DNA of 54,597 bases from a virus (Duplodnaviria > Heunggongvirae > Uroviricota > Caudoviricetes). Below, one piece after another: positions 4,731 through 30,455 of this stretch (the first letter of the stretch is position 1; each line of letters starts with the position of its first letter). A program made the position numbers and the translations under genes. The stretch covers positions 72,953 through 127,549 of the IMG/VR virus record IMGVR_UViG_3300026097_000012; one strand, 5' to 3'. The notes under the pieces are model-generated. The model was not told the origin of the DNA. It ran no database searches and worked only from the letters and a program-made list of their open reading frames with translations.

Positions 4731-5035
4731 TTAAGAGCAAAGACGAATTAAAGAGGAGACCTATTGAGATAGATCTAACGGGTCCAGATGGTAATGTATT
4801 CTATTTAATGGCTACAGCAAAGCGGTTATCGCGCCAGCTTTACGACTTCGTAACAGAAGAGCTTGAAAATGCTCGAGCAGTAGATGAATCATTAAAGCTG
4901 TTATATGACGGAGACTTTAAAACTCCTGAAAACATGGGAGACTGGATCGTAGAAGAAATGATGAAGTCTGATTACGAACATGCAGTTCAAGTTTTTGATA
5001 AATATTTTGGCGCAGTTGTAACACTGTACCGTTAA
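4727..5035 (+). CDS. conserved phage hypothetical protein
   Basis: IDLTGPDGNVFYLM motif; ATGA overlap. Confidence 0.75.
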   Translation: MIKSKDELKRRPIEIDLTGPDGNVFYLMATAKRLSRQLYDFVTEELENARAVDESLKLLYDGDFKTPENMGDWIVEEMMKSDYEHAVQVFDKYFGAVVTLYR

Positions 5036-5048
5036 CTACGGAGTAACT

Positions 5049-5306
5049 ATGGAAGAAGTAATAAACTTAATATCCGACCGAGACGAGATACTCGAGGACA
5101 AGGTGGCCGAGTTTCAGAAGAAACTAATTGACATACATCCTAAATTTAAAGTCGGACAGGTAATTCTTTTTTGGGGAGGATATAATAACGATATCCGATA
5201 CCGATCTGAAATAATTGGATTTAACGAGGACGGAGAAATCTACGTTATGTGGGATTGTTATTGGTTCCCTATTAGAGATGAAGAATCAAGAGAAATAGAA
5301 TTATAA
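5049..5306 (+). CDS. hypothetical protein
   Basis: ORF before terminator. Confidence 0.7.
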   Translation: MEEVINLISDRDEILEDKVAEFQKKLIDIHPKFKVGQVILFWGGYNNDIRYRSEIIGFNEDGEIYVMWDCYWFPIRDEESREIEL

Positions 5307-5329
5307 ACGGGTTTGTTTAAGTTAGATGG

Positions 5330-5352
5330 AACCTCAACTTCGGTTGGGGTTT
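5330..5352 (+). terminator. Intrinsic terminator
   Basis: AACCTCAAC-TTCG-GTTGGGGTT. Confidence 0.75.
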
Positions 5353-5361
5353 CGTCGTTTA

Positions 5362-5539
5362 GAGCGGTAAGCTTAGCGACGTGCCCGAGGAGGGTTGGCT
5401 CAGAAAGCTTTGACTACGGAGTTCACCGTGCACGCCGGGACCAGTGGGATCCCGGTACACAAGAGCACGGCTGGCCCTTAGAGAAATGCACAAAAATATT
5501 CTCAGGATTTTTTATAATGAAGAATAATTCTTATATTTA
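5362..5539 (+). promoter_or_regulatory. Dyad-decamer-dyad + promoter
   Basis: Dyads 5362-5401 and 5438-5477, ACTACGGAGT 5413; TATATTTA at 5532. Confidence 0.75.
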
Positions 5540-5561
5540 ACTATAACTTAAAACAAACACG

Positions 5562-5771
5562 ATGAGTAATTTTATAGATCACATCAAATTAGCAACAGAG
5601 AATATAGTTCTATGTAGTGGTATATGTTCTAAGAAAGAGCATTACGAGTACGCTGAGAAGATGGAAAAGATGCTTAAGCATCAGTTAAAAGAGGAGTTAA
5701 CTGAAATTGTAAATGATCACGAGATGATGGAAGAAAGACTTTGTGAATTTATTCAAAAACTAGGAGTATGA
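5562..5771 (+). CDS. hypothetical protein
   Basis: First ORF after promoter. Confidence 0.7.
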   Translation: MSNFIDHIKLATENIVLCSGICSKKEHYEYAEKMEKMLKHQLKEELTEIVNDHEMMEERLCEFIQKLGV

Positions 5772-5932
5772 AAAAGAAACCGACAATGACCAAAGCTCAA
5801 TTAACTCAGAGAGTTAATGAAGAAGCAAAGAGAATGCGAGAAGACATTAAAAGACAAGGAGGCAATCTTACCTTTGCTGAATGCAAGAAGGAGGCTCGTA
5901 AAGTATTCATGGAAGAATTCGAAATAGTTTAA
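5768..5932 (+). CDS. 54-aa basic hypothetical protein
   Basis: ATGA overlap with upstream gene. Confidence 0.55.
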   Translation: MKKKPTMTKAQLTQRVNEEAKRMREDIKRQGGNLTFAECKKEARKVFMEEFEIV

Positions 5933-6013
5933 GTCTAGGACACCCAATTCTCTTAGACATTTAATCTTACTTCAAAGAGATTATCTTATCATAGAGGGAC
6001 CCGAGTTAATCAC

Positions 6014-6044
6014 AAGAGGAATCTAAACAGGTTCCTCTTTTTTT
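6014..6044 (+). terminator. Intrinsic terminator
   Basis: AAGAGGAA..TTCCTCTT + T run. Confidence 0.75.
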
Positions 6045-6057
6045 ATCTCTACTTATC

Positions 6058-6209
6058 GAGCAAGTCGATAGGTTTCAAGAGAGAGGAGAGCTCGCTCGTC
6101 TCTGTTTGAGCCAGTGTGCTTTCGATCCTAACCTAGAGACCTCGACCTAGAGTATTTCAAAAATAAGTATAATTATATTTTAGGTTATCAATTATTATTC
6201 TTATATTTA
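6058..6209 (+). promoter_or_regulatory. Two tandem dyads + promoter
   Basis: 6058-6097 and 6108-6147; TATATTTA at 6202. Confidence 0.75.
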
Positions 6210-6232
6210 ATTATAACTTAAAACAAACAGAT

Positions 6233-6388
6233 ATGTATTCATTATATTGTAGCTACTACGACAAAGAGTTTAATTCCCTTGAGGAGCTAATTGAGGACGT
6301 GACCATCAATGGCATGGACCCAAACTATGAGGTGACCAGAGATGGCAAGGGTATTGGAGAGAACGCCATAGATTTTATTCAATTTTAA
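6233..6388 (+). CDS. 51-aa acidic hypothetical protein
   Basis: First ORF after promoter 6202. Confidence 0.6.
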   Translation: MYSLYCSYYDKEFNSLEELIEDVTINGMDPNYEVTRDGKGIGENAIDFIQF

Positions 6389-6398
6389 AAATAATATT

Positions 6399-6611
6399 AT
6401 GGATAAGCCAAAACTATACGTACTTATGTCTTATGATGAAGATGGTACCGACACATCTATATTCTTAGACAAAGATGAAGCGTTAGAAGAATTCGAAAGA
6501 GCAAGTGGAGACGACAAGGTCGTAGGAGAAGTAGAAGAATACAAATCCTTCGGACAAGGAGCATGGGGAGATTGGTATGGAATCAAAATAATTAAGAAAT
6601 CTGATGGTTAA
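6399..6611 (+). CDS. acidic hypothetical protein
   Basis: ORF in operon. Confidence 0.7.
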   Translation: MDKPKLYVLMSYDEDGTDTSIFLDKDEALEEFERASGDDKVVGEVEEYKSFGQGAWGDWYGIKIIKKSDG

Positions 6612-6855
6612 GTGGGATAAGAAAATAGAAGACAGGCACATGAAGGGAAATACTCCCTTCGGTGAGGTCTGGATCCGGTTTGACCGGGAAGGTAAAGCAA
6701 TCGGTTTATATACCTGTTTTGGCGATACTCAGAAATGGATTCCGGACGAAGAGTGGATGCAAGATCTCGAAGGAGCCCAGCTCAGATTAGAGGAACTTAC
6801 AGAAGATACCAAACGTTTACGTGATTGGGGTGAGGGACTACGGAGTAAAGATTAA
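6604..6855 (+). CDS. hypothetical protein
   Basis: ORF in operon. Confidence 0.65.
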   Translation: MVKWDKKIEDRHMKGNTPFGEVWIRFDREGKAIGLYTCFGDTQKWIPDEEWMQDLEGAQLRLEELTEDTKRLRDWGEGLRSKD

Positions 6856-6919
6856 ATTACATTATATTCTAAAACTGAGACCAGAATTACCTGTATAAGA
6901 AATAAATAATACTATAGAC

Positions 6920-7120
6920 ATGGAAAGCCAAATACATTCAATAATCGATCAATGGAAAGAAGAAACTGGTAATCAGAAGTCTATCTCGTCTGACTCGATT
7001 AAGGTTAAGTATGCAGACCGTGAGGTAGGGATATATACTATTTATCTTATGTTAAATCCTACAGTAAGGATTAAAGCATTGCTGAATGGCCCTGCTTGGA
7101 AAATCATAGAATTAAAATGA
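6920..7120 (+). CDS. hypothetical protein
   Basis: ORF in operon. Confidence 0.65.
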   Translation: MESQIHSIIDQWKEETGNQKSISSDSIKVKYADREVGIYTIYLMLNPTVRIKALLNGPAWKIIELK

Positions 7121-7410
7121 GACTTAACGAACCTTTTACTAAACTACTAACGTCAGTAGATGACCAGCTCGGAAGAGACGAAGAATCTATACACCTATTT
7201 GAATGGGTACTAGAAGAACACTATGAATCTAAAATTATAGAGAACATGGATTTTTTTCAAGAAAGGCCTGATCTTCGCTCAATTCAAAACGAACAAATGC
7301 TTCATGAATTAGATGTAATGGAAGCCTACTTCGTATCAAAGGAAGAGTATGAGAAATGCGCGTCAATCGTAAAGATTCGTTCTGATTTAAAACAAATTAT
7401 TTCTGCATAA
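7117..7410 (+). CDS. UVR-motif-containing protein (start reassigned to 7117)
   Basis: C-terminal EEYEKCASIVKIRSDL; ATGA overlap at 7117. Confidence 0.7.
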   Translation: MRLNEPFTKLLTSVDDQLGRDEESIHLFEWVLEEHYESKIIENMDFFQERPDLRSIQNEQMLHELDVMEAYFVSKEEYEKCASIVKIRSDLKQIISA

Positions 7411-7436
7411 TATTTTTTTATTCCAAATAAGTTTCT

Positions 7437-7444
7437 TATATTTA
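7437..7444 (+). promoter_or_regulatory. TATATTTA promoter
   Basis: Followed by TAACTTAAAACAAG leader; degenerate half-site TTCGTTC ends 7382 (55 bp upstream). Confidence 0.7.
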
Positions 7445-7466
7445 CTTTATAACTTAAAACAAGGCA

Positions 7467-7856
7467 ATGGCAAAAGGAACTAATGAATGGATAGGAGGTA
7501 GTTTCCATAACGTAACTATCACTGCCACCATAAACGATCTTATATTAGCATTAGGAGAACCACAGGTCTTTGATAATAGCGGAGAAGATAAAGTAAACGT
7601 TGAATGGGGTGCAGTCACTGAGGCAGGATTCCGTTTCACGATTTACGATTGGAAAGAATACAGAGTTTTAGATTTAGACGAACCTATTACTTTCCATATT
7701 GGAAGTACGAAAGGAGCAATTCAAGAATGGGAAGCAGAAGCTGAAGTAATTGCCGATATAGTAAAAATTAAAAAGAATGAAGAGATGCTTGAGTCAGGAT
7801 TAAGCGAAGAGGAATACGATGCTCTCTCTGAACTAGAAGAAATAAACAAAGAATGA
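7467..7856 (+). CDS. conserved phage hypothetical protein
   Basis: DKVNVEW..FTIYDWKEY motif. Confidence 0.75.
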   Translation: MAKGTNEWIGGSFHNVTITATINDLILALGEPQVFDNSGEDKVNVEWGAVTEAGFRFTIYDWKEYRVLDLDEPITFHIGSTKGAIQEWEAEAEVIADIVKIKKNEEMLESGLSEEEYDALSELEEINKE

Positions 7857-8125
7857 AAGATATAATAATTGAACGAATGTTAAAAGATACTAACAACGAA
7901 GGATTCCATATTCTGGACGAGTATGGATTACAAGCCTTCTTAGATCTTACGGCGACGAGTCATGATCCGATAGAAGGAATTAGGGATCTTAATAAAATGA
8001 AAAATTATTTTATTAGAGAAGAGGATTACCGTAAGTGCGCAAAGATACAAGACTGTATTAATGTCTTATGGGTCGATGGTCCTGAGAAACAAGGTCTAAA
8101 AAAAGAATTAGAAATATTAGTTTAA
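7853..8125 (+). CDS. UVR-motif-containing protein
   Basis: EEDYRKCAKIQDCI. Confidence 0.7.
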   Translation: MKDIIIERMLKDTNNEGFHILDEYGLQAFLDLTATSHDPIEGIRDLNKMKNYFIREEDYRKCAKIQDCINVLWVDGPEKQGLKKELEILV

Positions 8126-8146
8126 ATCCAGCTTGTTTAAGTTAGG

Positions 8147-8172
8147 AAAAGGTCGGAGAAATCCGACCTTTT
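8147..8172 (+). terminator. Intrinsic terminator
   Basis: AAAAGGTCGGA-GAAA-TCCGACCTTTT. Confidence 0.85.
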
Positions 8173-8189
8173 CTTTTTCCTGAGGATCT

Positions 8190-8292
8190 GAGCCAAGTAT
8201 GCCCGGATAATAAACGATCCCGTTGGCTCTAAACAAATTTGCAAAAAAGTTTAAGAAATATTATAATAAGTGGTATATTATTCTTATATTTA
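8190..8292 (+). promoter_or_regulatory. Dyad + promoter
   Basis: 8190-8229 (40 bp); TATATTTA at 8285. Confidence 0.8.
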
Positions 8293-8318
8293 TAGTATAA
8301 CTTAAAAACAAACAAGAT

Positions 8319-8573
8319 ATGGTAATGACACCGATTGACGCAGACACACTGCGAAGCAAATTGAATGAAGGCACAGTGCAATTCGCATTTAAGAAAAAAG
8401 ACGGGACCCTGCGAACTGCAGTGGGAACCACTAACTTGGATACGGTTCCCCTAGAGAGTCATCCATCAGGCGAAGGAGGAGAATCTTCTCGTGCATCAGT
8501 TCGATATTTTGACATGGGCAAGAACTCATGGAGATCATGTTCTGCTGACACTGAAATCTTTTTAGCAGATTAG
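8319..8573 (+). CDS. WYL_2/DUF2693-like SH3 beta-barrel protein
   Basis: VQFAFKKKDGTLRTAVGT..YFDMGKNSWRS. Confidence 0.75.
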   Translation: MVMTPIDADTLRSKLNEGTVQFAFKKKDGTLRTAVGTTNLDTVPLESHPSGEGGESSRASVRYFDMGKNSWRSCSADTEIFLAD

Positions 8574-8574
8574 A

Positions 8575-9294
8575 ATGTACGAAGAGATTTATAACCTATG
8601 TTCCGTAAAGAACAAGGGATCTGTTTTTCAAAACGGATCGGATAAGATTACTCCACGAGTAGAATGGATCTTGAACTTCCTAATGGATAACAAGATGCCA
8701 TTCATACTCGATGAGTTTCCTGTTAAAGACGGAACAGGTTATAATATTATCCTTACTGGAGAGTCAGGTAAATGGGTTACATGCCATCATGATATTGTAA
8801 ACCCTAAGTCTGATAATGCAAATGACAATTCATGTTCTATTATAAATGCTATCTCGTTAAAACAACTTGCTCCTCATATTAATGTAGCAATACTCGATGG
8901 AGAAGAGCCAGGTGGTCTAGGATCAAATCGCCTTTCCTCTCAAATGAAAGCGGGTGACTACGGAGTAATTGATTGGATTCTAAATCTAGAGCTAACAGGT
9001 ATAGGAGGTAAAGATTTTCTGATCTGTAACTCTAATATGGACAAGTCACTAAGTAAACGAGTAAGAGATCTCTTTATATGCGATATCATTGGAGTACCAT
9101 TTAACGACTCAGTTATATTTAGAAAGAACGGTTTTGATTCTATAGTTATTAACCCTCTTCCTAGAATGGAGAACGGAAAATTAGATATGAGTGTCCTATT
9201 TAGATGTCATTCAATGAGTGATTCAGTAGATAAGATCTCAATAGAAGATATGAAAGTATTTACAGAAGAAGTTTTACTTCCGATCGTAAGTTAA
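8575..9294 (+). CDS. M28-family Zn metallopeptidase
   Basis: HHD, NANDN, DGEE..GLGS, NLELTG, CHS..DS ligands. Confidence 0.8.
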   Translation: MYEEIYNLCSVKNKGSVFQNGSDKITPRVEWILNFLMDNKMPFILDEFPVKDGTGYNIILTGESGKWVTCHHDIVNPKSDNANDNSCSIINAISLKQLAPHINVAILDGEEPGGLGSNRLSSQMKAGDYGVIDWILNLELTGIGGKDFLICNSNMDKSLSKRVRDLFICDIIGVPFNDSVIFRKNGFDSIVINPLPRMENGKLDMSVLFRCHSMSDSVDKISIEDMKVFTEEVLLPIVS

Positions 9295-9314
9295 GGCGTT
9301 TGTTTAAGGTTAGA

Positions 9315-9343
9315 GATTCCCTCAACGAAAGTTGGGGGTTTCT
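9315..9343 (+). terminator. Intrinsic terminator
   Basis: CCCTCAAC-GAAA-GTTGGGG + T. Confidence 0.75.
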
Positions 9344-9356
9344 CGTTTTTGGAGGC

Positions 9357-9459
9357 GAGCTAACTTTACCCCTTGAATCCTTGACATCGGAGGGCTCGCC
9401 TCGCTCTAGACTTTATTTAAATCAAATGTGAAATATTTAATTTATTTTGCCTATATTTA
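9357..9459 (+). promoter_or_regulatory. Dyad + promoter
   Basis: 9357-9397; TATATTTA at 9452. Confidence 0.75.
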
Positions 9460-9484
9460 CTTATAACTTAAAACAAATAGTAAT

Positions 9485-9844
9485 ATGGAAGCAATATTCA
9501 ATAGACATCTTAAAGATTTTCATGCGGATTTTACAATAGAATTTGACGTGAAAAATCCACCTCTAGCAAACATATCAGAAGAAGCACATCAGTATGAATA
9601 TGAAACAGGAACTGTAGTAAATGAATTAGGAGATGAATTATTTAATAATCTTAACTATAAGTGGCTGAAAGATTGGAGTTTTGCCGGTCGAAGCAATGGC
9701 TGGTTTGTTTTGTTGTGCGAAGGAGATGAATCCAAAATACAAGCAAAAACACTCAGAAGGCTAGAAAGTCTTGTTAAAGACTACCTAAACAAATACAAAT
9801 TAGCATTGGAGCATGCTTATAATTCGTTAAAAGAAAATGGCTAA
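9485..9844 (+). CDS. hypothetical protein
   Basis: First ORF after promoter. Confidence 0.75.
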   Translation: MEAIFNRHLKDFHADFTIEFDVKNPPLANISEEAHQYEYETGTVVNELGDELFNNLNYKWLKDWSFAGRSNGWFVLLCEGDESKIQAKTLRRLESLVKDYLNKYKLALEHAYNSLKENG

Positions 9845-10022
9845 GAAAAAGAAATACACGATTACTAAAGAACAACAATTGAAGTTCGACCGCAAGGCGA
9901 GCCGCGAGGAAGAGCTTGATAAGAATGGAGGCTGGTGCGCGGTCCATAAAGTCCACAAGTCAGACAAGACCTACTGCCGAACGAAGAAGCACTCGAAGCG
10001 AGACGACGAGCTTGGCTCATAA
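9837..10022 (+). CDS. small basic hypothetical protein
   Basis: RKASREEE..HKVHKSDK; overlaps upstream stop. Confidence 0.7.
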   Translation: MAKKKKYTITKEQQLKFDRKASREEELDKNGGWCAVHKVHKSDKTYCRTKKHSKRDDELGS

Positions 10023-10081
10023 CTAATTCCAAAAATAAGTTCATAAAAGTGTTAAGTATTCAAAGTAAATGCTTATATTTA
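9979..10081 (+). promoter_or_regulatory. Dyad embedded in CDS + promoter
   Basis: GAACGAAG 9979..TTGGCTC 10018 (40 bp); TATATTTA at 10074. Confidence 0.75.
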
Positions 10082-10104
10082 CTTATAACTTAAAACAAAC
10101 ACAC

Positions 10105-10473
10105 ATGAAGCATCTATTTTTTGTAGCACAGGACGGCAACGCAGACGAGTTGTTTGCAATGATTGAGTCAGATCATTTCGACGATCTTGCACTAACTCAA
10201 CTTAAATCAGAATATGAGAATGCAGAGATTGATGATACAGAATTCTGCGAACAAGTACAAGGGTACCTTAAATCCAATATCGTTCTTTCTATCTTTGCGG
10301 TAGTGATGGTGGAAAGAGAAGATTCAGATAATCCAACTCTTAAAATTGTTAGAGCTGAGAACGAAGACGATGCTTACAACAGATTTGCGTCTATGATTGG
10401 TCATACCGGAAGATCATTGAACGAAGGAGAAGAGGAAGGAGAAATTGTAATTCTAATAAGAGAAGTTAAGTAA
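10105..10473 (+). CDS. acidic hypothetical protein (start reassigned to 10105)
   Basis: Track start 10069 overlaps the promoter. Confidence 0.75.
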   Translation: MKHLFFVAQDGNADELFAMIESDHFDDLALTQLKSEYENAEIDDTEFCEQVQGYLKSNIVLSIFAVVMVEREDSDNPTLKIVRAENEDDAYNRFASMIGHTGRSLNEGEEEGEIVILIREVK

Positions 10474-10490
10474 CCGTAAATTAACCAAGT

Positions 10491-10652
10491 ATGAAAAAGA
10501 AAATAATCCAAGTATTCGTTGTAATTTGTATGATTATATCTGCAGTGATACTACACGAATTAATATTCCTACTTACTAAATTTATTCCTTATCCAATTGT
10601 GTTAGGTATGCTCGGAGGATGGGGACTGACCTATCTATACTATAGAAAGTAG
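10491..10652 (+). CDS. 53-aa membrane protein
   Basis: Two hydrophobic segments. Confidence 0.55.
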   Translation: MKKKIIQVFVVICMIISAVILHELIFLLTKFIPYPIVLGMLGGWGLTYLYYRK

Positions 10653-10667
10653 TTTGTTTAAAGTTAA

Positions 10668-10695
10668 ATGAGACCCTGCTTCGGCGGGGTCTCAT
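10668..10695 (+). terminator. Terminator-like hairpin
   Basis: ATGAGACCCTGC-TTCG-GCGGGGTCTCAT. Confidence 0.8.
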
Positions 10696-10701
10696 TGTTT
10701 G

Positions 10702-10885
10702 GAGCCAATTGATCTACGTTCTTCAGACTCTTAATTGGCTCCTCCTATAATATGTTTACTACGGAGTAGTTCATTATACAGACGAGCGAAGCTAATCCGA
10801 TCGCATGTCTGCCGAAGTTCGCTCTAACTTATGTGCAAAATAAATGGACGTTTTATTTTTTATCCAATAAAGTTTTGTATATTTA
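10702..10885 (+). promoter_or_regulatory. Dyad-decamer-dyad + promoter
   Basis: 10702-10741 and 10784-10824, ACTACGGAGT 10758; TATATTTA at 10878. Confidence 0.8.
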
Positions 10886-10911
10886 CTATGTAACCAATTA
10901 ATTTCAAGTAT

Positions 10912-11325
10912 ATGAACAAAGAAGAGTTAGTAACCAAGTTTAAGAAGAGAGGTAGTAAGGACCTATCTAAGAAATTAGATAATCCAAAAACTACAGATTT
11001 GGAAAAGAAGGCAATCACTGAATTGCTCGTCAAGAGAGGAGTAATTAAGGAGGAGGCAAAGAAACCAGTTGCCACAAAAAAGAAAGCGACAAAGAAATCC
11101 CCAGCCAAAAAGAAATCGGCAAACGTGGATGTAATTGCTGACTTCCTAAAAGTAGGAGACGAGGCTAAAATCAAATCTAAGGCTAAGTCCACGTTGGGCC
11201 AAATGATCAATGCAAAGGTCGTGAAGATCTATGCATGTAATCGAACAGGCAAGAATTACGTGAGATTAAAGGCAGATGGTCACACGTACCACAAACGCTT
11301 AAATGCATTTGAACCTGCAGAGTAG
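10912..11325 (+). CDS. Lys-rich probable nucleic-acid-binding protein
   Basis: KKKATKKSPAKKK histone-H1-like linker. Confidence 0.7.
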   Translation: MNKEELVTKFKKRGSKDLSKKLDNPKTTDLEKKAITELLVKRGVIKEEAKKPVATKKKATKKSPAKKKSANVDVIADFLKVGDEAKIKSKAKSTLGQMINAKVVKIYACNRTGKNYVRLKADGHTYHKRLNAFEPAE

Positions 11326-11345
11326 GAATTAAATCCCTCGCATAG

Positions 11346-11372
11346 AAACCCTGGCTTCGGCTAGGGTTTTTT
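11346..11372 (+). terminator. Intrinsic terminator
   Basis: AAACCCTGGC-TTCG-GCTAGGGTTT. Confidence 0.8.
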
Positions 11373-11386
11373 CGTTTACTACGATA

Positions 11387-11489
11387 GAGCCAAGACATCT
11401 CGAAACAGAGGCGGGAGAGCTCGCTCATTGATTTCTTGCAAATGAAATGTCATTTTATTTTTTTAATCCATTGATATTATGTATATTTA
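11387..11489 (+). promoter_or_regulatory. Dyad + promoter
   Basis: 11387-11426; TATATTTA at 11482. Confidence 0.8.
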
Positions 11490-11528
11490 ACATGTAATTA
11501 ATTATTAATCAATTAAAAATTAAAGCGC

Positions 11529-11996
11529 ATGAAAAAACTAATTTTGTTATCAAGTCTTCTTCTTTTAGTAGGAGTAGCATTTTCATCACCATCAATTGAC
11601 ATAGAGTCAACTGATATTACAAGTGTTGATATTGTTCAATCATCGGTCACAAAAGTTCCGGAAGCATCGGTCCCAGTGTTTGATGGATTATTCCATCTAG
11701 TGGAAATCAAGATTTTATCTAGACATTTAGAATACATCACTGATACTGTCTATGATTTGGTCGAAGTCCACAAACCACATGATATATTTTTACGTGTACA
11801 GGTTGACTCCTCTATGTATAAAGACTATATTATACACGATATTGGAAATTTTGAAAATATAGATACCATTCGATATCTTGAGATATATGAGCAGGATGAA
11901 TGTAATCATGCCAATGTCGTACATATCAATTGGTTAAATAAATCGATAGTTGATCTTGTCTATGTACCAATTGACGATATAGAAAAGATTGAATAA
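11529..11996 (+). CDS. secreted hypothetical protein
   Basis: N-terminal signal peptide MKKLILLSSLLLLVGVAFS. Confidence 0.7.
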   Translation: MKKLILLSSLLLLVGVAFSSPSIDIESTDITSVDIVQSSVTKVPEASVPVFDGLFHLVEIKILSRHLEYITDTVYDLVEVHKPHDIFLRVQVDSSMYKDYIIHDIGNFENIDTIRYLEIYEQDECNHANVVHINWLNKSIVDLVYVPIDDIEKIE

Positions 11997-12015
11997 ACGG
12001 TTTACTAAATTTAAG

Positions 12016-12042
12016 AAAAACCCCGCATGGCGGGGTTTTTTT
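12016..12042 (+). terminator. Intrinsic terminator
   Basis: AAAAACCCCGC-ATG-GCGGGGTTTTT. Confidence 0.85.
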
Positions 12043-12057
12043 ATGCTCTGTTGTCTA

Positions 12058-12160
12058 GAGCAAGGGATCCCCGATAATAGAGTTTGTCTCCTCGCTCTAA
12101 TTAAATGCGCAAAATAAATGACGTAAAATTTTTTATATCCAAGCAAATTGCCTATATTTA
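12058..12160 (+). promoter_or_regulatory. Dyad + promoter
   Basis: 12058-12097; TATATTTA at 12153. Confidence 0.8.
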
Positions 12161-12183
12161 CTTATAACTTAAAACAAAGGATT

Positions 12184-12366
12184 ATGAAAATTATGAAAAA
12201 CGTTATGTATATTATTGGATTATTCGCGACACTAGTAATGGTGTTCGGAGGAATCATCCATTATTTTGGTAATGAGCACGGTGACTCAGTTATTCTAGTT
12301 GCCGGGATGGTAGCAGTAGCGTGTTTATTTAGTATTGATGCATTATCTAAAGAGGAGACATTATGA
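12184..12366 (+). CDS. two-TM membrane protein (start reassigned to 12184)
   Basis: Hydrophobic segments; track start lies in promoter. Confidence 0.65.
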   Translation: MKIMKNVMYIIGLFATLVMVFGGIIHYFGNEHGDSVILVAGMVAVACLFSIDALSKEETL

Positions 12367-13022
12367 AGATTACAAAGAAGGACTGGGACAGAATGCTAGA
12401 TTTAATACTCACTAATAATGAAGGAGAGACCGTTGCCAAGTCGATAAAGGATCCAAACAAGGCCGCTGCTAGATTTATATGTGGCCTTAAATTAATGGGA
12501 CTAGACATTGATTACAGAAGCACATGGAACGATCCAGTATATGTAGAAGAATTTTCATGTTTCGGTAATAGAGCTATCGAACTAGGAGGACCTGATTTCA
12601 TCGTCCATATTCTGAATGAGTTTAGAAAAACAGAGATCCCCTTGTATGTCAGAGAGAAGAGAGAAAAGTACATCGGAAAGAATATGAATAATGGATATGT
12701 ATCATTCATATCTAAGGCGATTATTGATGCAGGGTTTGACATTAACTATCTAAACAGCGGAGGATATGCAATGACCTCAGCAGGAAAATACGCAATGGAA
12801 CGTAACGGAAGAAAGTGGACCATTGGATATAAAACAGAAATCCAAATCGGAGAGGAGAAATATACATTCAACTTCGATGCTATTACATGTGAAGGAGGAG
12901 GACCAACGAGTTATGTAGTGCATGAAACAAGCTCTAGCATATTTGATTCAATGATATGGTCTGAGGTTGGTAAGACATCATTTAAATCTCAATTACTCAA
13001 GCAACTAAAAGAAGCTGCGTAA
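12363..13022 (+). CDS. hypothetical protein
   Basis: 219-aa ORF. Confidence 0.8.
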   Translation: MKITKKDWDRMLDLILTNNEGETVAKSIKDPNKAAARFICGLKLMGLDIDYRSTWNDPVYVEEFSCFGNRAIELGGPDFIVHILNEFRKTEIPLYVREKREKYIGKNMNNGYVSFISKAIIDAGFDINYLNSGGYAMTSAGKYAMERNGRKWTIGYKTEIQIGEEKYTFNFDAITCEGGGPTSYVVHETSSSIFDSMIWSEVGKTSFKSQLLKQLKEAA

Positions 13023-13046
13023 AAACAGTGACTACGGAGTAATAAG

Positions 13047-21344: not shown

Positions 21345-22535
21345 ATGGGAAAACGAGAAGTAACGGACGCACAGTTCCAAGAAATTAAAAACAAAGTCGG
21401 CCAAGCTGAGTCGGCTGTAAAAAGAGTACCTATATCTGCGATCTCCGTAGATCATGAGACTCTTAGACGAGGAAGAATCCTCGTTGGTGGTCAGCCGGTT
21501 AAAGTAAGTTCAGGCTTTTTCTCAAAGCTCGGACAAATGCTAAAGATCTCTACTTCTCTTACGAGAAAGATGATTGAGAAAGGAGACACGCAGATTGCGG
21601 CTGCTCTTATTAATGGTCTTAAGGACTATTCAGTTAAGAACAAAAAGGACAACGACGTAATGTTAATTGCAAACGTTAACTCTAAAGAAATCGTTGACAT
21701 TTGTACTCCTAATAGATATAAGAGAGTTACGAATGATACTTTGTTCGATGTAACAGAACGCATCTTGAACGACAACTCTTCTCTTATCTTAGAGACAGTG
21801 GACTTCAATCCGAATACCGGTAAAGCATCAATTAACTTTCTTAATCAGGAAGAGGTTGGATTTGCACAGGCAGGTAAAGATGAGTTCTTTAAATTCGGGT
21901 TCTCTCTTATTCAAACGAACAAAGATACCATTGTGGAATCTTACAATCAACGTTTGATCTGTACTAATGGACTCCGTACTTCACTAGGTGGAGGGGTTAT
22001 TGGGGGAACTTCAAACAAGGGAATGAGTTTCGACGATAAGTTCAGACTAGGCGGAACCTCAACTGAGGATATTCGAATCTTCTTGAACAAAATCGAAGAC
22101 ATGAAGAAAGCTAACTTCGTACCTGGTACATTTGAAGGAGCTATCAACCGTGCAGTAGGAACTAAAGCTTCGTACCTTGAAGTTGAAAAAGCCTGGAAAG
22201 CTGCACATGCCAAAGTAGAGGATATTAATCCTGATATGCGAAAGCAATATCAAGCTGCGATGGCAAGAGACTTCTTCCATGCTTATGGAAACACAATGAA
22301 TCGAATTAAGAACAAAGGAACTGATCCATTGGGTCTTAATGAAAAGCAAAAGTCATTCATTAAAACTGACATGTCGATCTGGGATGTAGTTAATTCAATG
22401 ACATTCCTAGGTTCAAATAACTCAGGGTTCGAATTGGCAAACAAGCACGAACTAAAGTATTCAGCTGGGGAGCTGTTCGCGAAAGGCACAAAGGAAGGTT
22501 ACGACCTGGAATTTGCGCAATACGCAAACCTATAA
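21345..22535 (+). CDS. DUF932-like protein
   Basis: GFSL..RLICTNGL motif. Confidence 0.6.
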   Translation: MGKREVTDAQFQEIKNKVGQAESAVKRVPISAISVDHETLRRGRILVGGQPVKVSSGFFSKLGQMLKISTSLTRKMIEKGDTQIAAALINGLKDYSVKNKKDNDVMLIANVNSKEIVDICTPNRYKRVTNDTLFDVTERILNDNSSLILETVDFNPNTGKASINFLNQEEVGFAQAGKDEFFKFGFSLIQTNKDTIVESYNQRLICTNGLRTSLGGGVIGGTSNKGMSFDDKFRLGGTSTEDIRIFLNKIEDMKKANFVPGTFEGAINRAVGTKASYLEVEKAWKAAHAKVEDINPDMRKQYQAAMARDFFHAYGNTMNRIKNKGTDPLGLNEKQKSFIKTDMSIWDVVNSMTFLGSNNSGFELANKHELKYSAGELFAKGTKEGYDLEFAQYANL

Positions 22536-23549: not shown

Positions 23550-24143
23550 TTAATCCTTCTCGCTCGGTAAGGCTCTCGCAAGCTTAGCTTCTTCTATTAG
23601 CTTAGCCAAATCCTCGCTCTGTTCTTCTAGATAATAGGGATCAGTTAACACGGGATTCATTATCACAACATCTGTTCCATGGTACTTGCATAATTCGGCA
23701 AAGAATTCGTATGCCACACGTGATATCCTACACTTAGTATCGACCACCACTGCGTCTACCTTTCCGGCCATAATATCTCTTAGTAGCTGGTGGAACTGAG
23801 GGCGTCCAGACTGCGAGTGATCGGTGCTACTACCAATATCCTCATATATCTTCTCTAGGGAAATACCTCGCTTGGTACAGAAGTGTCGCATTAGATTCTT
23901 CTGAGCCTGTAGCTGGCTCGAGTCCGGCTTAAACCTTTTACCTACCCTTACATAACCTACTATCCAGTGTTCCTTGGTAATTCTTTTACCTACCATGGCG
24001 TAAACATCCTCGTCCCAGTAATTATTCTTACCTTTCTTTCCGTACATCTCGTATTTGTATACACGGATCTTTCCAGATTTAGCGTATCTCTTTAGAGTAG
24101 AATAACTACATCCTAGGACTCTTAGTGCCTCTGTCTTAGTCAT
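23550..24143 (-). CDS. IS607 TnpA-like serine recombinase (MerR-HTH + resolvase domain), catalytic Ser replaced by Gly
   Basis: N-terminal EALRVLGCSYSTLKRY; GYVRVG in place of YxRVS; EDIGS..RPQF; no TnpB nearby. Confidence 0.85.
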   Translation of the reverse strand: MTKTEALRVLGCSYSTLKRYAKSGKIRVYKYEMYGKKGKNNYWDEDVYAMVGKRITKEHWIVGYVRVGKRFKPDSSQLQAQKNLMRHFCTKRGISLEKIYEDIGSSTDHSQSGRPQFHQLLRDIMAGKVDAVVVDTKCRISRVAYEFFAELCKYHGTDVVIMNPVLTDPYYLEEQSEDLAKLIEEAKLARALPSEKD

Positions 24144-24179
24144 ATATGTCTGATTCTTTTAAGTGTTACTACGGAGTCC

Positions 24180-24700
24180 CTATACACGGACAGGGGAATC
24201 CTTTTAGTTATTTATCAGGAGATAGTGGTTCAAAAAATTAGAAATGAACCTCAGCTGAGCACCAGTCATGATATGTACCTCTACTTCGTCGTCGTCGCCA
24301 ACGTTTGTCCTGGAGCCCGAGGGAAGACGCCCAACCCACGCAACTGTTGACGTTGCCCCCAAACAGGCCGAACGGGCACACGTCGAAAGGGCACAGGCCG
24401 AACGGGCACACGCCGAACGGGCACACCTGGTACAGGAGGACAAGGGACTAGGTGGTATCGGGACCGTAGGTCCACGATCACCAGCTGTACTACGGAGTAA
24501 AACGTGTAGGAGAGGGGGACCAGGTGACGTGTGGCGAGGCCACGGCTGGCCCTGGAGGTCTATAAAAAGGTCTTATACGTCAAGTAACTAGGTCAGTACA
24601 ACTGAGCTGTACTACGGAGTAAGGAGGTATAGGAGATTCTTTTATTTCTTTATTAGTTTATATAGGAGTAGACATAATAGAAGGGTCTATAGTAGTTTTA
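24180..24700. repeat. GC-rich non-coding island with tandem repeats
   Basis: GCCGAACGGGCACAC-type units 24367-24426; AGCTGTACTACGGAGTAA at 24483 and 24606. Confidence 0.8.
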
Positions 24701-25130: not shown

Positions 25131-25324
25131 TTGCGTATAATATTATCTTGAGTATTGGGGACTACGGAGTAAACTACAGGCAAATACGGTTCTATAGAAA
25201 AGAGGATACGATCTGCCTCACCGTATATTCCAGTCATAGTAGCCATTCTACCACGAATCTTTATCTCTTCAAATCCATTCCTATTGGAGAAATGTTCCTC
25301 TATTCTCTTACCTAGATCTTGCAT
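25127..25324 (-). CDS. hypothetical protein
   Basis: Coupled ORF. Confidence 0.6.
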   Translation of the reverse strand: MQDLGKRIEEHFSNRNGFEEIKIRGRMATMTGIYGEADRILFSIEPYLPVVYSVVPNTQDNIIRK

Positions 25325-26656: not shown

Positions 26657-26660
26657 GTGA

Positions 26661-26987
26661 CTACGGAGTAACAATTTTAAGTATAGAATCCGACAGATCC
26701 AATTGTCTGTCCAGTTTTTGCTCCAGTTCTGAAACTCTTTGTGCCAGTTCCAAGTTTTGTTGTTGCAACACTTCAATTACACTGACACCTGAATAAGATG
26801 GATAAGATTGAATGGATGATAATGTTTCTCCAGCAGTATGATGAATAAATATAGTATCGTCATATGGATTCCGTCTAAATCCTCTAGTTTGAGGGCGATT
26901 ATTCTCGTGCACCGCTTTATTCAAACAATGGACCTGATTAGAACATCCCCTGATAATATCCAGTATTGGAGGTAAATTAAGTTCCAT
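26661..26987 (-). CDS. hypothetical protein (PQTRGF motif)
   Basis: C-terminal coiled coil. Confidence 0.65.
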   Translation of the reverse strand: MELNLPPILDIIRGCSNQVHCLNKAVHENNRPQTRGFRRNPYDDTIFIHHTAGETLSSIQSYPSYSGVSVIEVLQQQNLELAQRVSELEQKLDRQLDLSDSILKIVTP

Positions 26988-28071: not shown

Positions 28072-28080
28072 TTGCTCATA

Positions 28081-28320
28081 TTAAAATGGTAAATCAAGTG
28101 CTAGCATTTTACAATGTTCAGGATTAACTTCAAACTCTTCCATGACTTTTAGGATATCTTCGTTACTTGCTCCAAATGTAGAACACAGTTCAACTATCAT
28201 TGGGTCTTCATCCTCATCTGTGTCAGCTTCTTTGAATACGTCTATGAAATATCCAAGTACATGATCGAATCCATATGCTACTATCGTATCTCCGTCTATT
28301 TTTTTGCTATATCTACTCAT
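28081..28320 (-). CDS. hypothetical protein, paralog of 31735-31952
   Basis: TIVAYGFDHVLGYFIDVF. Confidence 0.75.
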   Translation of the reverse strand: MSRYSKKIDGDTIVAYGFDHVLGYFIDVFKEADTDEDEDPMIVELCSTFGASNEDILKVMEEFEVNPEHCKMLALDLPF

Positions 28321-28649
28321 AATCTTTCTATTGCTACTTCAAATGATTCAACTGTTCTTTGAGCAGGAAACTGATATGTGGTTTGACTTAAGGTATCAGA
28401 AGATCCGCTTATGGTTTCTTCATGGACGTAATCGTAATTGCGATATGATCTTTGAACTGAAATAACCTTAAACTTTCCACGTATTCCTTTTCTAAATAGT
28501 TTTCTATTTGGAAATCTAGCGTCATGCCAGTGTTCATCCATTAGGGTCGTTATCCAAATCTCTTCTCCTATTTCTGGAACCTTGTGAGTTGGAACAGTTA
28601 GAACATTATCTTCGCCTAACCAATAAGATATTTCTGATTTATCTTTCAT
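28317..28649 (-). CDS. hypothetical protein
   Basis: ATGA coupling. Confidence 0.7.
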   Translation of the reverse strand: MKDKSEISYWLGEDNVLTVPTHKVPEIGEEIWITTLMDEHWHDARFPNRKLFRKGIRGKFKVISVQRSYRNYDYVHEETISGSSDTLSQTTYQFPAQRTVESFEVAIERL

Positions 28650-28945
28650 ACGATTTCTCCTCTTTTAATTTCTTTCATTCGATTAATAAAATTAACTTCT
28701 TTTTGAATAAGAGATTTTACTTTCTTTTTAGAATGATTTGGATTAGTGATATCAATAGGAATTGAAAAAAGTTCGTTATACGTTACAACCTCTACATCTG
28801 GTCCAAATAGTATAAATTTTTTCTTCTTTTTTACAATAGGCGCAGTATCATAAAAATGAGTAATTTCCGAATCAAATGTTTCAGCTCCAGTCAGATCATA
28901 TGATTCATAGAAAAATAAACGTCCGTTAAATTCTAATTCTTTCAT
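28646..28945 (-). CDS. hypothetical protein
   Basis: Directly after - strand promoter. Confidence 0.7.
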   Translation of the reverse strand: MKELEFNGRLFFYESYDLTGAETFDSEITHFYDTAPIVKKKKKFILFGPDVEVVTYNELFSIPIDITNPNHSKKKVKSLIQKEVNFINRMKEIKRGEIV

Positions 28946-28949
28946 ATGT

Positions 28950-28957
28950 TAAATATA
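28950..28957 (-). promoter_or_regulatory. TATATTTA promoter without dyad
   Basis: TTTTTA-N17-TATATTTA on - strand. Confidence 0.7.
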
Positions 28958-28989
28958 CTAAATTAGATCGGGATTAAAAAATTAATAGA

Positions 28990-29172
28990 CTATAAATATT
29001 TAATTATTTTCACTGCCTCGTCATGAGGGTGCACGTCAAATACATTTTTCTTACATTTTTTACATTCAACCTCCCATTCTGATCCGTAATATACGTTTCT
29101 AAATTCATGTTTACATGAATTGGCAAGTCCACGAGTTTGAGGACGGAATATGACAGTTTGTCTACGTTTTCC
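28990..29172 (-). pseudogene. Start-less frame continuing in-frame after the TAA of 29173-29382 (PQTRGL, CxxC)
   Basis: GKRRQTVIFRPQTRGL..ECKKCKK..YL*. Confidence 0.55.
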
Positions 29173-29382
29173 TTAAACAGGATCTTCAATGTCAACATTG
29201 CCATCTCCTATTTGAATTCGTTGTCCATCCTCTACCACTAAAATAGTTTTAGTAACGTTCCACTGTCCGTCTCCTTTAGGAGCGTATTCAGGTTGAATGT
29301 GTACGTCGATTCGTAATTCACCATTAGCGAACATTTCTACAATCGCGTCTCGTACTTGTTTTCTAGATAATTTCTGTTCCAT
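29173..29382 (-). CDS. hypothetical protein
   Basis: ORF in block. Confidence 0.65.
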   Translation of the reverse strand: MEQKLSRKQVRDAIVEMFANGELRIDVHIQPEYAPKGDGQWNVTKTILVVEDGQRIQIGDGNVDIEDPV

Positions 29383-29412
29383 CTTAAATTGGGTTTCCTA
29401 GTTGTTCTCTCT

Positions 29413-29646
29413 TTACTCAGCCCCTTCGTCTGCGAACGGGTTTTCTTCAAAATGTATATGCGTGTTTCCATTAGCGTCAATCGATTCCAAAACTTTAACA
29501 TCGTCTATTGTATATTTCTTAAACTTCTTATTAAGATCTGTTAAGTCCTCGACTTTTACGATCTTTGATTTCTTTACAAAAACATCATCTAACAGTGCGT
29601 GGCCTGAATCTTCCCATCTTGAATATTTTACAAATACTGTCTTCAT
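29413..29646 (-). CDS. hypothetical protein
   Basis: ATGA coupling. Confidence 0.7.
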   Translation of the reverse strand: MKTVFVKYSRWEDSGHALLDDVFVKKSKIVKVEDLTDLNKKFKKYTIDDVKVLESIDANGNTHIHFEENPFADEGAE

Positions 29647-30455
29647 GATGTGAACCAGTTTAGTATACGTCTAAAGAATCCAGGATTCTTAATTGGCTCC
29701 GATTTTACTGGATCCTTGAACTCAGTTTCACCTTTATATTTCTTAACTGCTTTCTTAAGGTTCTCATTAGGAGGCTTAGGATTTTCAATAGATTCACAGA
29801 ATAATTCAGCATCCTCTTCAGATTTAATTATACTATCATCCCATTCATCGATTGCATCACGATCATCATCATCAAGATCAGGAAGACGTTCCACTGATTC
29901 AGGCTCAGTGAACATTAGAGATTCTTGTACTTTATCCATTTCTTCAGTATTTCCCTCTTCAATTCCAAGTAGTTCTCCAATTCCATCACCAATTATCTTT
30001 TTTCCTTTAGCAATATTCTCTCTGTCTACTTTGATATGGTTCTCACAATAGTCAGCCATCCATGCTAATTTATAAGGATCAGTAATTCCTTGTGCTTCTA
30101 ACATTGGTCTCCATTTCTCAATAAGATATGGATCATTAGATGTACCAAATGAATCTGCTGGCTTATCGAATCCTTCATGCATTACTACGGAGTCAACCTT
30201 TGGCTCTTCAGCTTCAACTGGCGCAGTATCATACACGTTTGGATCATCAGTTTCAATGATAACAAAACACTTGCTACTTCCTGGATCCTTAGGAGAGTAC
30301 GCATGATATCCATTACAATATTTGTTAGGATTCTTAGTAGACAAACACATGTCACCCTTATGAGCTACGATGTGTTCGTACCAATATCTAAATCCATTCA
30401 TTGATACTATCCCCTTTTCTGGTAAAATTTCTGTCACTTCTTTATTCTCTTCCAT
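29643..30455 (-). CDS. acidic mosaic protein with segment resembling a capsid-protein N-terminus
   Basis: LIEKWRPMLEAQGITDPYKLAWMADYCENH; ENPKPPNENLKKA. Confidence 0.7.
   Translation of the reverse strand: MEENKEVTEILPEKGIVSMNGFRYWYEHIVAHKGDMCLSTKNPNKYCNGYHAYSPKDPGSSKCFVIIETDDPNVYDTAPVEAEEPKVDSVVMHEGFDKPADSFGTSNDPYLIEKWRPMLEAQGITDPYKLAWMADYCENHIKVDRENIAKGKKIIGDGIGELLGIEEGNTEEMDKVQESLMFTEPESVERLPDLDDDDRDAIDEWDDSIIKSEEDAELFCESIENPKPPNENLKKAVKKYKGETEFKDPVKSEPIKNPGFFRRILNWFTS

Follow-up and report, generated by a model that had tools for sequence, protein, structure and literature searches.

To our knowledge, strand-polarised exact words are rare in phage DNA, and 60 years of work on T5 have not settled what they are for. 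The PeSL cassettes of T4-type phages are promoter-early and stem-loop units in hyperplastic regions. In phage tf, 14 sites of an exact 9-mer, which are the sites of single-strand nicks, are all on the top strand and 11 of them lie in the early left half; their positions are similar in relatives, and sites with single substitutions are not nicked (PMC3517423). The nick consensus is 5'-TACT/RTGMC-3' in tf/LUZ24-like phages and 5'-CGACxxxxxCCTA/CTCCGG-3' in phiKMV-like phages (PMC3517423). On the protein side, TnpA of the IS607 family binds cooperatively to multiple short repeated motifs, and the resulting filament can capture another DNA (PMC6188088).

The stretch of DNA analysed here (the window, 54,597 nt) is part of a 127,549-base (127.5-kb) contig of a phage designated G000. 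The decamer ACTACGGAGT occurred in the window as 16 exact copies, all on the plus strand and none on the minus strand, whereas shuffles gave an expected count of 0.05 and a maximum of 2. No one-mismatch copy was found on the plus strand of the window. The sequence-only reading of this DNA had listed the same 16 decamers; every coordinate was exact, and the strand-wise k-mer count that it had proposed returned only these 16 for the whole contig, with no copy in the other 73 kb. ACTACGGAGT is also the commonest 10-mer of the contig, and identical sites were present in L241, an independent assembly of this phage from another run. The copies and the neighbouring features are as follows.

3792..20120, plus strand: early cassette array 1; its recurrent promoter/leader motif, TTCTTATATTTA-NN-TATAACTTAAAACAAAC..ATG, is common to the whole phage family
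5035..5044, plus strand: copy 1; its first A also closes the stop codon of ORF 4727-5035, and the ATG at 5049 follows 4 nt downstream
5413..5422, plus strand: copy 2, about 115 nt before the promoter at 5530, probably in a spacer
6837..6846, plus strand: copy 3, at the 3' end of ORF 6604-6855
8957..8966, plus strand: copy 4, within a peptidase M28-like ORF (8575-9294)
10758..10767, plus strand: copy 5, intergenic
13031..13040, plus strand: copy 6, between a stop codon (13022) and a terminator hairpin
15055..15064, plus strand: copy 7, within ORF 14926-15177
16512-17240, plus strand: sigma-70-type factor, within early cassette array 1
17566..17575, plus strand: copy 8, in a 152-aa HELGH-motif ORF, coding for CYYGV; same orientation in relatives L236 and L238
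17725..17734, plus strand: copy 9, in the same 152-aa ORF, coding for DYGV; in L236 the reversed word (DSVV) is at the identical aligned position
20137..21279, plus strand: RadA-like/AAA_25 P-loop ATPase, a syntenic neighbour in most relatives
20353..20362, plus strand: copy 10, coding for GTTES within the RadA-like gene, in its variable linker
21345..22535, plus strand: DUF932-like protein (language-model look-alikes only, no Pfam match), a syntenic neighbour
23550..24143, minus strand: IS607-type TnpA-like gene with N-terminal HTH_17 and resolvase catalytic domain, nucleophile Ser replaced by Gly; candidate decamer binder
24168..24177, plus strand: copy 11, operator-like, preceding the ATG of the TnpA-like gene by 25 nt; reversed in L236 with identical flanks
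24363..24426, no strand assigned: 4.3 tandem copies of a GC-rich 15-bp repeat, within the decamer cluster
24489..24498, plus strand: copy 12, cluster
24611..24620, plus strand: copy 13, cluster
25161..25170, plus strand: copy 14, cluster
26660..26669, plus strand: copy 15, antisense within minus-strand ORF 26321-26776
30184..30193, plus strand: copy 16, antisense within minus-strand ORF 29643-30455

Copies were found in frames 0, 1, and 2 of plus-strand ORFs, in intergenic DNA, and, at 26660 and 30184, antisense within minus-strand ORFs, in agreement with the sequence-only reading except that the "ORF" around the copy at 5413 is probably a spacer upstream of a promoter. The extended consensus it had proposed, with G or T before the word and A or C after it, held in part: the 5' base was G or T in 15 of 16 copies, and the 3' base was A in 11 and C in 4 but T in 1, and the consensus of the family differs. 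Its "near 2 kb" spacing was reduced to a weak tendency, the copies being placed only slightly more evenly than at random, with P of about 0.04-0.5 per genome. A protein with a T9SS sorting domain gives a hint at a Bacteroidota host.

In total, 180 copies were present in 20 related IMG/VR contigs, with one copy against the majority strand of its record. The exact 10 bases recurred in 171 distinct contexts, and one-mismatch versions were almost absent across the family. A logo of 126 distinct copies consisted of two positions that are not A, ACTACGGAGT, and then A-A-A-(C), and no second conserved promoter or partner element was found in it within 25 nt. In every related record the copies, spaced about 0.3-4 kb apart, were limited to one zone of 20-27 kb, i.e., about 10% of a genome of about 270-284 kb, and in a relative contig of 269.7 kb this zone was internal (73-94 kb) and not terminal, a placement that lends no support to the marking of early-entering DNA proposed by the sequence-only reading. 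It contains the early-gene cassette array, a sigma factor, the RadA-like ATPase, the DUF932-like gene, and the IS607-type transposase-like gene, around which the density of ACTACGGAGT was highest. Map positions were similar among relatives (the RadA-like linker, upstream of the TnpA-like gene, and after homologous genes), and some copies were in hypervariable protein linkers with unalignable surroundings. Since the exact 10 bases occur in intergenic DNA, in all frames, and in hypervariable linkers, with near-misses almost absent, selection acts on the DNA, as the sequence-only reading had supposed. ACTACGGAGT is thus a selected directional DNA signal and a family trait of large uncultivated phages, and it is probably a protein docking or nicking site. 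No directional decamer signal of this sort was found described in the literature searched.

In most relatives, hereafter ancestral-type, ACTACGGAGT is antisense to the array genes. G000 is collinear with the relatives G003 and G009 over more than 100 kb, with ACTACGGAGT on the opposite strand, and the clade of G000 is reversed with strand counts of 16/0, 9/2, and 6/1. Three sites were reversed at or near the same position, two of them (copies 9 and 11 against L236) at the identical aligned position. The third, in the RadA-like linker, was in an adjacent register, the reversed word (H/DSVV) almost abutting copy 10 in the alignment with four relatives and lying further on in G009. Reversal in place corresponds to exactly two substitutions, at the asymmetric positions 4 and 7 that break the palindrome of ACTACGGAGT, and the cluster sites were also flipped in place between clades. 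In L236, intact words stand on opposite strands 156 bp apart, both orientations within one ORF. The reversed clade, despite collinear genes, and the flips in place indicate a DNA-level signal whose orientation is selected and not tied to transcription or local gene order; what is conserved is the relative orientation of the copies only.

The TnpA-like protein matched Pfam HTH_17 at residues 1-30 and Resolvase at 61-163, and its best PDB matches were the IS607-family catalytic domains 3lhk, 3lhf, 3ilx, and 6dgc. The HTH was conserved among the homologues, whereas the full catalytic set (the nucleophile Ser of YxRVS and the Asp of DRLxR) was present in none of those inspected: G000 has RVG at the nucleophile motif, other Ser-less homologues have RVA, RVP, RVD, RVN, or RVG, and L236 and L238 keep RVS but have Cys instead of the motif Asp. 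With HTH kept and catalysis incomplete, the protein looks like a binder rather than an enzyme. In all 12 genomes examined, 3-5 copies of ACTACGGAGT were within about 2 kb of the TnpA-like gene; one copy was at a fixed spot 25-34 nt upstream of its ATG in the clade of G000, and one was within the gene in most ancestral-type relatives. As this association of the gene with the motif consists in synteny inside a single phage family, it is not independent of common descent. The RadA-like and DUF932 pair, which the sequence-only reading had named as a possible binder, is not required, since L238 keeps both ACTACGGAGT and the TnpA-like gene without the pair at the syntenic place. The "dead recombinase" of that reading, i.e., the TnpA-like protein, stays the best candidate binder.

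We therefore tentatively favour, at somewhat less than even confidence, the reading that ACTACGGAGT is an oriented double-stranded DNA docking site for this phage-encoded protein (23550-24143). The most likely reader would be the IS607-type transposase-derived protein, whose gene is amid the densest group of copies. It would bind the copies cooperatively, like IS607-family TnpA on its repeated end motifs, and the bound copies would be paired or stacked into a higher-order complex over the 25-kb early region, which might serve early-gene shut-off, early-gene organisation, or the recruitment of a nicking activity; the copy 25-34 nt before the TnpA-like start codon may act as an operator. The synapses of serine recombinases are known to discriminate between relative site orientations, and such orientation-selective synapsis would explain why copies are co-oriented in each genome while their absolute direction varies by clade. 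The phage protein shares with IS607-family TnpA (IS1535/IS607; PMC6188088) the N-terminal HTH and C-terminal serine-recombinase domain. Both systems have short repeated DNA motifs, cooperative multi-site binding and DNA pairing being properties of TnpA, and the central GG of ACTACGGAGT is the dinucleotide of IS607 strand exchange. However, all inspected phage homologues have an incomplete catalytic set, and IS607-type elements have two ends terminating in GG, usually with tnpB. The called genes flanking the TnpA-like gene in one independent assembly of this phage and four relatives were short ORFs without a Pfam match, none of them tnpB-sized, and no transposon ends were present around the decamers. 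Moreover, the phage sites are dispersed over 25 kb at 0.3-4 kb, whereas IS607 motifs are packed within about 80 bp of the element ends.

Several points weigh against docking. Co-orientation at a spacing of 1-3 kb would not be needed by simple docking, and the topological filter is borrowed from resolvases; a change from all-plus to all-minus under a relative-orientation rule would have to pass through mixed states. In addition, the same 13 bases stand in 20 cassette leaders of G023 and 14 of G026, two unrelated huge phages, and the TnpA-like gene was not detectable in either, which would be either coincidence or the work of another reader. Finally, an exact word, one strand, early bias, and conserved positions would fit the nick sites of phage tf equally. 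The main rival, possible though rather doubtful, is that ACTACGGAGT is the site of a phage nickase cutting one strand of the packaged DNA, as happens in T5, phiKMV-like, and tf/LUZ24-like phages; the shared direction of the copies would keep one strand continuous. The decamer resembles these sites as an exact word of 9-10 bases on a single strand, commoner in the early half and intolerant of substitutions, with similar positions in relatives as in tf. Its reverse strand, TTTACTCCGTAGT, contains the TACT of the tf site and TACTCCG of the phiKMV site CCTA/CTCCGG, the seven consecutive bases to which the sequence-only reading had rightly pointed. The nicked strand in known systems is coding (tf early genes) or non-coding (phiKMV), so that a change of strand between clades is conceivable, and three contig ends at most 25 nt from a copy point weakly in the same direction. 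However, no nickase candidate was identified, and the family logo shows nothing that corresponds to the CGAC element upstream in the phiKMV consensus. Known nick systems are genome-wide, whereas no copy is found here outside 25 kb; L236 retains its intact sites on opposite strands; and, unlike nick sites, the decamer is linked to a transposase-derived gene and reversed between collinear clades by substitutions in place.

With the reversed clade, a direction shared among the copies can be told apart from a direction fixed in the genome. This speaks against a reference set by transcription, replication, packaging, or end-entry, unless these changed too. A polar signal for a tracking machine with a fixed genomic direction (Chi-like exonuclease protection, KOPS-like orientation of a translocase or terminase, an ejection pause, or lagging-strand primase sites) would account for the strict polarity and the spacing, and Chi and KOPS are likewise short, over-represented, strand-polarised words. 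Theirs have 5-8 bases, occur genome-wide, serve host machines, and follow replication in their orientation, whereas the decamer is local, 10-13 bases long, specific to a phage family, internal in the 269.7-kb contig, and reversible where gene order and orientation are collinear; this reading is improbable, and the fixed polarity (Chi, KOPS, ejection, packaging) suggested by the sequence-only reading is hard to keep. Still less credence is given to a transcription or RNA signal, such as a sigma-factor promoter or activator box, a polar terminator, or an RNase or ribosome-binding element: the word is sense in array 1 but antisense in array 2 of G000, its strand switches between clades of identical gene order, both orientations occur within one ORF of L236, it has no second promoter element within 25 nt, and one copy is directly before a terminator hairpin. 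This stands against the facts that the zone is the early region and that the reverse word of ancestral-type genomes runs in the direction of nearly all zone genes, often upstream of cassettes. The gene co-orientation and fixed start-codon distance of a promoter or leader element were found only in G023 and G026, where the word is part of the 5' leader and a GGAG precedes the ATG by 7-8 nt. It is improbable, to the same degree as the tracking signal, that ACTACGGAGT is a crossover or junction where early cassettes swap between co-infecting relatives by a site-specific recombinase or microhomology, as with integron attC or T4 PeSL. Only relative orientation would count in such exchange, a serine-recombinase-type gene is linked (its nucleophile Ser kept in L236 and L238), many copies in ancestral-type relatives are exactly between a cassette terminator and the next cassette, and 16 of 195 left ends of pairwise homology blocks were 0-4 nt before a copy. 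However, right-hand ends do not fall on the word (3 at its last base vs 16 left), and the left-end pattern would arise trivially wherever a homologous cassette is bordered by a conserved island. At least half of the array copies of G000 are within ORFs, away from cassette borders, all inspected recombinase homologues are without Ser or the motif Asp, and 16 direct repeats would delete early genes. The array does resemble PeSLs in its many small early-gene units, each with a repeated promoter and terminator hairpin, shuffled among relatives; PeSLs, however, are promoter/terminator repeats co-oriented with genes, whereas the decamer is a separate word on a gene-independent strand.

Docking by the TnpA-like protein admits a bolder form, which we consider unlikely: a transposase that lost catalysis would have become an organiser of the early region, the co-oriented decamers tying about 25 kb into an orientation-selective nucleoprotein complex; a lineage could reset the common direction of the sites through paired point mutations that change both asymmetric bases of the quasi-palindrome. 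The family offers a large natural data set, with hundreds of copies across dozens of large phages that are uncultivated, and also a natural experiment, since the entire set of one clade is reversed in place with its genes unmoved. It supplies precise reagents as well, namely the word and its reversed form, the two palindromic intermediates between them, and a named candidate protein. Should nicks be found, programmed nicking would be extended to a new phage group and tied to the early region. If the TnpA-like protein is the reader, this would be a clear case of viral domestication of an IS607-type enzyme, and the organiser, if true, would represent a chromatin-like viral element of a new kind, and binding sites would be seen to evolve in a new way.

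An exact match count over the whole window found the decamer ACTACGGAGT 16 times on the + strand (5035-30193) and 0 times on the - strand, in agreement with the number, strand and positions given by the sequence-only reading, whereas dinucleotide-preserving shuffles of the window gave an expectation of 0.05 copies and a maximum of 2. No single-mismatch copies were found on the + strand of the window. The window is the final 54.6 kb of a 127,549-base IMG/VR viral contig (hereafter G000; CheckV completeness 51%), in which the decamer was the most frequent 10-mer. The strand-specific k-mer count suggested earlier was run on the full contig and placed all 16 copies within the window, the remaining 73 kb containing none. 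Because L241, an independent assembly of the same phage from another sequencing run, had sites identical to those of G000, the pattern is not an assembly artefact. As previously described, some copies fell between genes, others within + ORFs in more than one frame, and the rest antisense within two - ORFs; the spacing of about 2 kb was at best weakly supported as a regularity by a spacing test.

A logo of 126 distinct copies showed ACTACGGAGT preceded by two non-A positions and followed by AAA(C); no other element was conserved within 25 nt of the decamer. The decamer is a quasi-palindrome, the symmetry of which is broken only at position pair 4 and 7 (A..G). An extended palindrome for a symmetric dimer was rejected, since the flanking positions -1/+1, -2/+2, and -3/+3 were complementary no more than by chance. 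GGGCAC, tried as a second motif, stood beside the decamer in only 7 of 171 contexts.

Features of the window around the decamers
3.8-22.5 kb (block), + strand: array of small early-type cassettes, each with a repeated promoter/leader and a terminator
3792-20120, + strand: promoter/leader TTCTTATATTTA-NN-TATAACTTAAAACAAAC with an ATG within a few bases, e.g. at 3794, 4499, 5530, 6200, 7435, 8283, 10072, and 13165
16512-17240, + strand, in the array: sigma-70-type factor
20137-21279, + strand, in the array: RadA-like/AAA_25 ATPase
21345-22535, + strand, in the array: DUF932-like protein
23550-24143, - strand: TnpA-like protein, 197 aa; HTH_17 at the N terminus, plus a resolvase catalytic domain
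24363-24426, within the decamer cluster: GC-rich 15-bp tandem repeat, 4.3 copies of the unit ACACGCCGAACGGGC
Beyond the TnpA-like gene: four decamers in 1 kb, then a second array of small genes (- strand)

Many IMG/VR phage contigs that have otherwise diverged carry a near-identical promoter/leader (one scan gave 32 stretches). This element matched neither the consensus promoter of sigma-70 nor that of Bacteroidota. A Bacteroidota host is hinted at by the T9SS sorting domain of one protein. The tandem repeat coincides with a local GC maximum (about 41%) and may act as an additional binding motif or as an origin element; in some relatives (G012 and G005), GGGCACGG directly precedes a decamer. 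In the related contig L052 (G012), the reverse complement of the leader core, TGTTTTAAGTTATA, was observed between the stop codon and the cassette terminator (5240-5300, 6498-6560, and 7887-7945 in the decamer frame). Since TGTTTTAAGTTATA stands ahead of the terminator, the 5' and 3' ends of the mRNA are complementary, as an earlier proposal of a 'panhandle' had it. Further along the window, NAMPT (nicotinamide phosphoribosyltransferase) and ribose-phosphate pyrophosphokinase genes form an NAD+ salvage pair (50065-53082), and a tyrosine recombinase gene (53616-54419) lies at the contig end.

Relatives were found by scanning IMG/VR with 14-22-base words from the decamer or the promoter motif, which yielded many contigs with the same promoter array. 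Twenty array-sharing records held 180 decamers, all on one strand within each record with the single exception of one stray copy in G007, and restricted in each to 20-27 kb. In the relatives, this zone contained the cassette array, a sigma factor, and the TnpA-like gene with 3-5 decamers clustered round it; RadA-like and DUF932-like genes were present in the zone of most relatives, not all. The zone occupied 73-94 kb of a 269.7-kb contig of one relative, away from the contig ends; the longest contigs available for the two orientation types measure about 284 kb and 270 kb. The family relative G011 had no decamer, but its contig stops inside the array, which makes it of no use as a negative control. 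Megablast against cultured or deposited phages turned up no close relative at the DNA level, tblastn with two proteins gave distant matches only, and an IMG/VR scan with the RadA-like protein as a single query gave no matches.

Genome comparison indicates that the family is strongly mosaic. G001:1-42742 and G003:59034-10495 showed 70-93% identity over 43 kb in mosaic blocks, after which similarity was wholly lost, and the CheckV value of '100% complete' for G001 (140 kb) is doubtful. The family member L238 (GCA_048885015.1, JBHLQG010000001.1) is a 22.5-kb contig in a bin labelled Thorarchaeota archaeon, probably as a result of a binning error. Some contigs began or ended at or near a decamer, which lay at position 1 in G026, at position 6 in G017, and 21 nt from the end in G020, with further values of 169 (G001), 158 (L240), and 187 (G016). 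Three of about 20 in-zone contig ends were no more than 25 nt from a decamer, against about 0.7 expected, which could reflect repeats, micro-diversity, or fragile nicked DNA.

In each of six phages, the RadA-like gene carried the decamer in the linker that joins two conserved blocks, and apart from the decamer this linker was unalignable among the six. The decamer was likewise kept amid unalignable surroundings in a 152-aa ORF with a HELGH motif. The encoded residues varied with frame and orientation (GTTES, HSVV, DYGV, and DSVV). These alignments indicate that selection acts on the decamer DNA.

In most relatives, the decamer was antisense to the array genes, that is, on the strand of the TnpA-like gene, and often directly followed a stop codon or the terminator of a cassette. 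In G000, it was sense to the first array and antisense to both the TnpA-like gene and the second array. Inversion of the module as the source of this reversal was rejected, because G000 was collinear with both G003 and G009, in the same orientation, throughout the array and the flanks on either side (>100 kb), and because the spacing between the cluster decamers and the TnpA-like gene was similar in G000-type genomes and in those with the usual (ancestral-type) orientation. Nearer relatives, found via the TnpA-like protein (70-81% identity), had a reversed majority with few exceptions (majority/minority counts of 9/2 in L236 and 6/1 in L238), and the next outgroups (52% and 47% identity) had the usual orientation. 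The three reversed genomes formed one well-supported clade in a protein tree.

The reversal could be followed at individual sites. Upstream of the TnpA-like ATG, within identical flanks, the gene strand read ACTCCGTAGT in G000 and L238 and ACTACGGAGT in L236, and the HELGH ORF alignment gave DYGV in G000 against DSVV in L236. The differences at these two sites were confined to positions 4 and 7; therefore, both were turned in place by two substitutions. The palindromic intermediates ACTACGTAGT and ACTCCGGAGT were absent from the zones. In the RadA-like linker, G000 had the forward word and four relatives had the reverse word a few bases on, almost abutting, with that of G009 about 30 bases further; at this site the reversed word is shifted to a neighbouring register rather than occupying the same aligned position.

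Our best explanation, which remains tentative and which we rate at somewhat under an even chance, is that the decamer is a putative site at which the TnpA-like protein docks. Among solved structures, those closest to this protein are IS607-family catalytic domains, and its gene lay within the densest decamer group in 12 of 12 genomes examined. In the G000 clade, one decamer keeps a constant place 25-34 nt ahead of the TnpA-like start. Most ancestral-type relatives have a decamer inside the gene, where it encodes TTES beside the point at which the nucleophile Ser is missing; this copy lies about 190 nt after the start in L233/G003, L234/G007, G010, G019, and L242 (TTES of YCRVAGTTESD vs YxRVS). 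The gene of the ancestral-type protein thus carries that protein's presumed site beside the dead active site. The HTH was well conserved, and most homologues had G, A, P, D, or N where the nucleophile Ser is expected. In the two homologues that retained Ser, the Asp of the motif was a Cys, and the full catalytic set was found in none of the homologues inspected. L238 has the decamer and the TnpA-like gene, and both the RadA-like and DUF932 genes are missing at the syntenic place, which weakens the earlier suggestion that this pair binds the decamer.

Resolvase synapses select the relative orientation of their sites. By analogy, only relative site orientation would count here, which is what the clade reversal shows. 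In the IS607 family, TnpA dimers bind cooperatively to several short repeats, building a filament that captures a second DNA (PMC6188088). Following that model, a domesticated TnpA-like form could tie co-oriented decamers together.

Among known systems, the decamer comes closest to the nick-site words of tf, phiKMV, and T5 and to the end motifs found in IS607 elements. Programmed one-strand nicking at the decamers is the main rival reading and is rated somewhat below docking. Phage tf has 14 exact 9-mer copies, all on the top strand and 11 of them in the early half, at positions similar to those in its relatives, and single-substitution variants are not nicked (PMC3517423); the decamer resembles this pattern in its exact word, single strand, early bias, and kept positions. 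phiKMV-like phages are nicked at CGACxxxxxCCTA/CTCCGG (PMC3517423), and, as pointed out earlier, the reverse strand TTTACTCCGTAGT shares TACTCCG with the phiKMV site; the CGAC element of that site has no counterpart in the decamer logo. The docking and nicking readings are not mutually exclusive. That decamers are junctions of cassette exchange is improbable: some homology blocks begin exactly at a decamer, but the block-end pattern is one-sided, as a conserved island would give.

An equally low probability is given to signals tracked in a fixed direction, primase words included. Chi, KOPS, packaging, ejection, or fork direction would need the reference to be flipped in a collinear genome, and no sign of such a flip was seen in 128 kb of synteny; a direction tied to the genome, as in the Chi, KOPS, ejection, and packaging signals mentioned earlier, is thus hard to reconcile with the strand reversal in the collinear G000 clade. 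A transcription or RNA signal appears very unlikely, since the decamer is both sense and antisense inside G000, and even inside one L236 ORF, its strand switches between clades with the same genes, and no partner promoter element lies near it. An element linked to RNA hairpins or terminators was rejected: a hairpin follows about half of the ancestral-type copies but is absent after most G000 copies.

The word also appeared outside the family, as ACTACGGAGTAAA in two unrelated huge phages, where it lies in the 5' leader of 20 early cassettes of G023 (327 kb in all; G023:C1:77594-100243) and, with the same leader, of 14 in G026 (G026:C1:1-16339). This leader follows a TTGACA-N17-TAnAAT promoter overlapping a GGGTAC/GTACCC dyad, and has GGAG as a Shine-Dalgarno sequence 7-8 nt ahead of the ATG. 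Direct comparison of G023 with the window revealed almost no detectable shared proteins, and no TnpA-like gene was detectable in G023. A coincidental match is unlikely but not negligible, because GGAG- and A-rich leaders occur frequently; both contigs were left out of the family counts. A literature search found no paper describing the decamer or the system, and a search on the word itself returned PCR primers only.

What is new here is the clade-level reversal of the word, its flips in place, the incomplete and variable catalytic sets of the TnpA-like proteins, and a family member without RadA-like and DUF932 genes at the syntenic place. The complex of TnpA-like protein and decamers may serve in early-gene shut-off, organisation, or nuclease recruitment.
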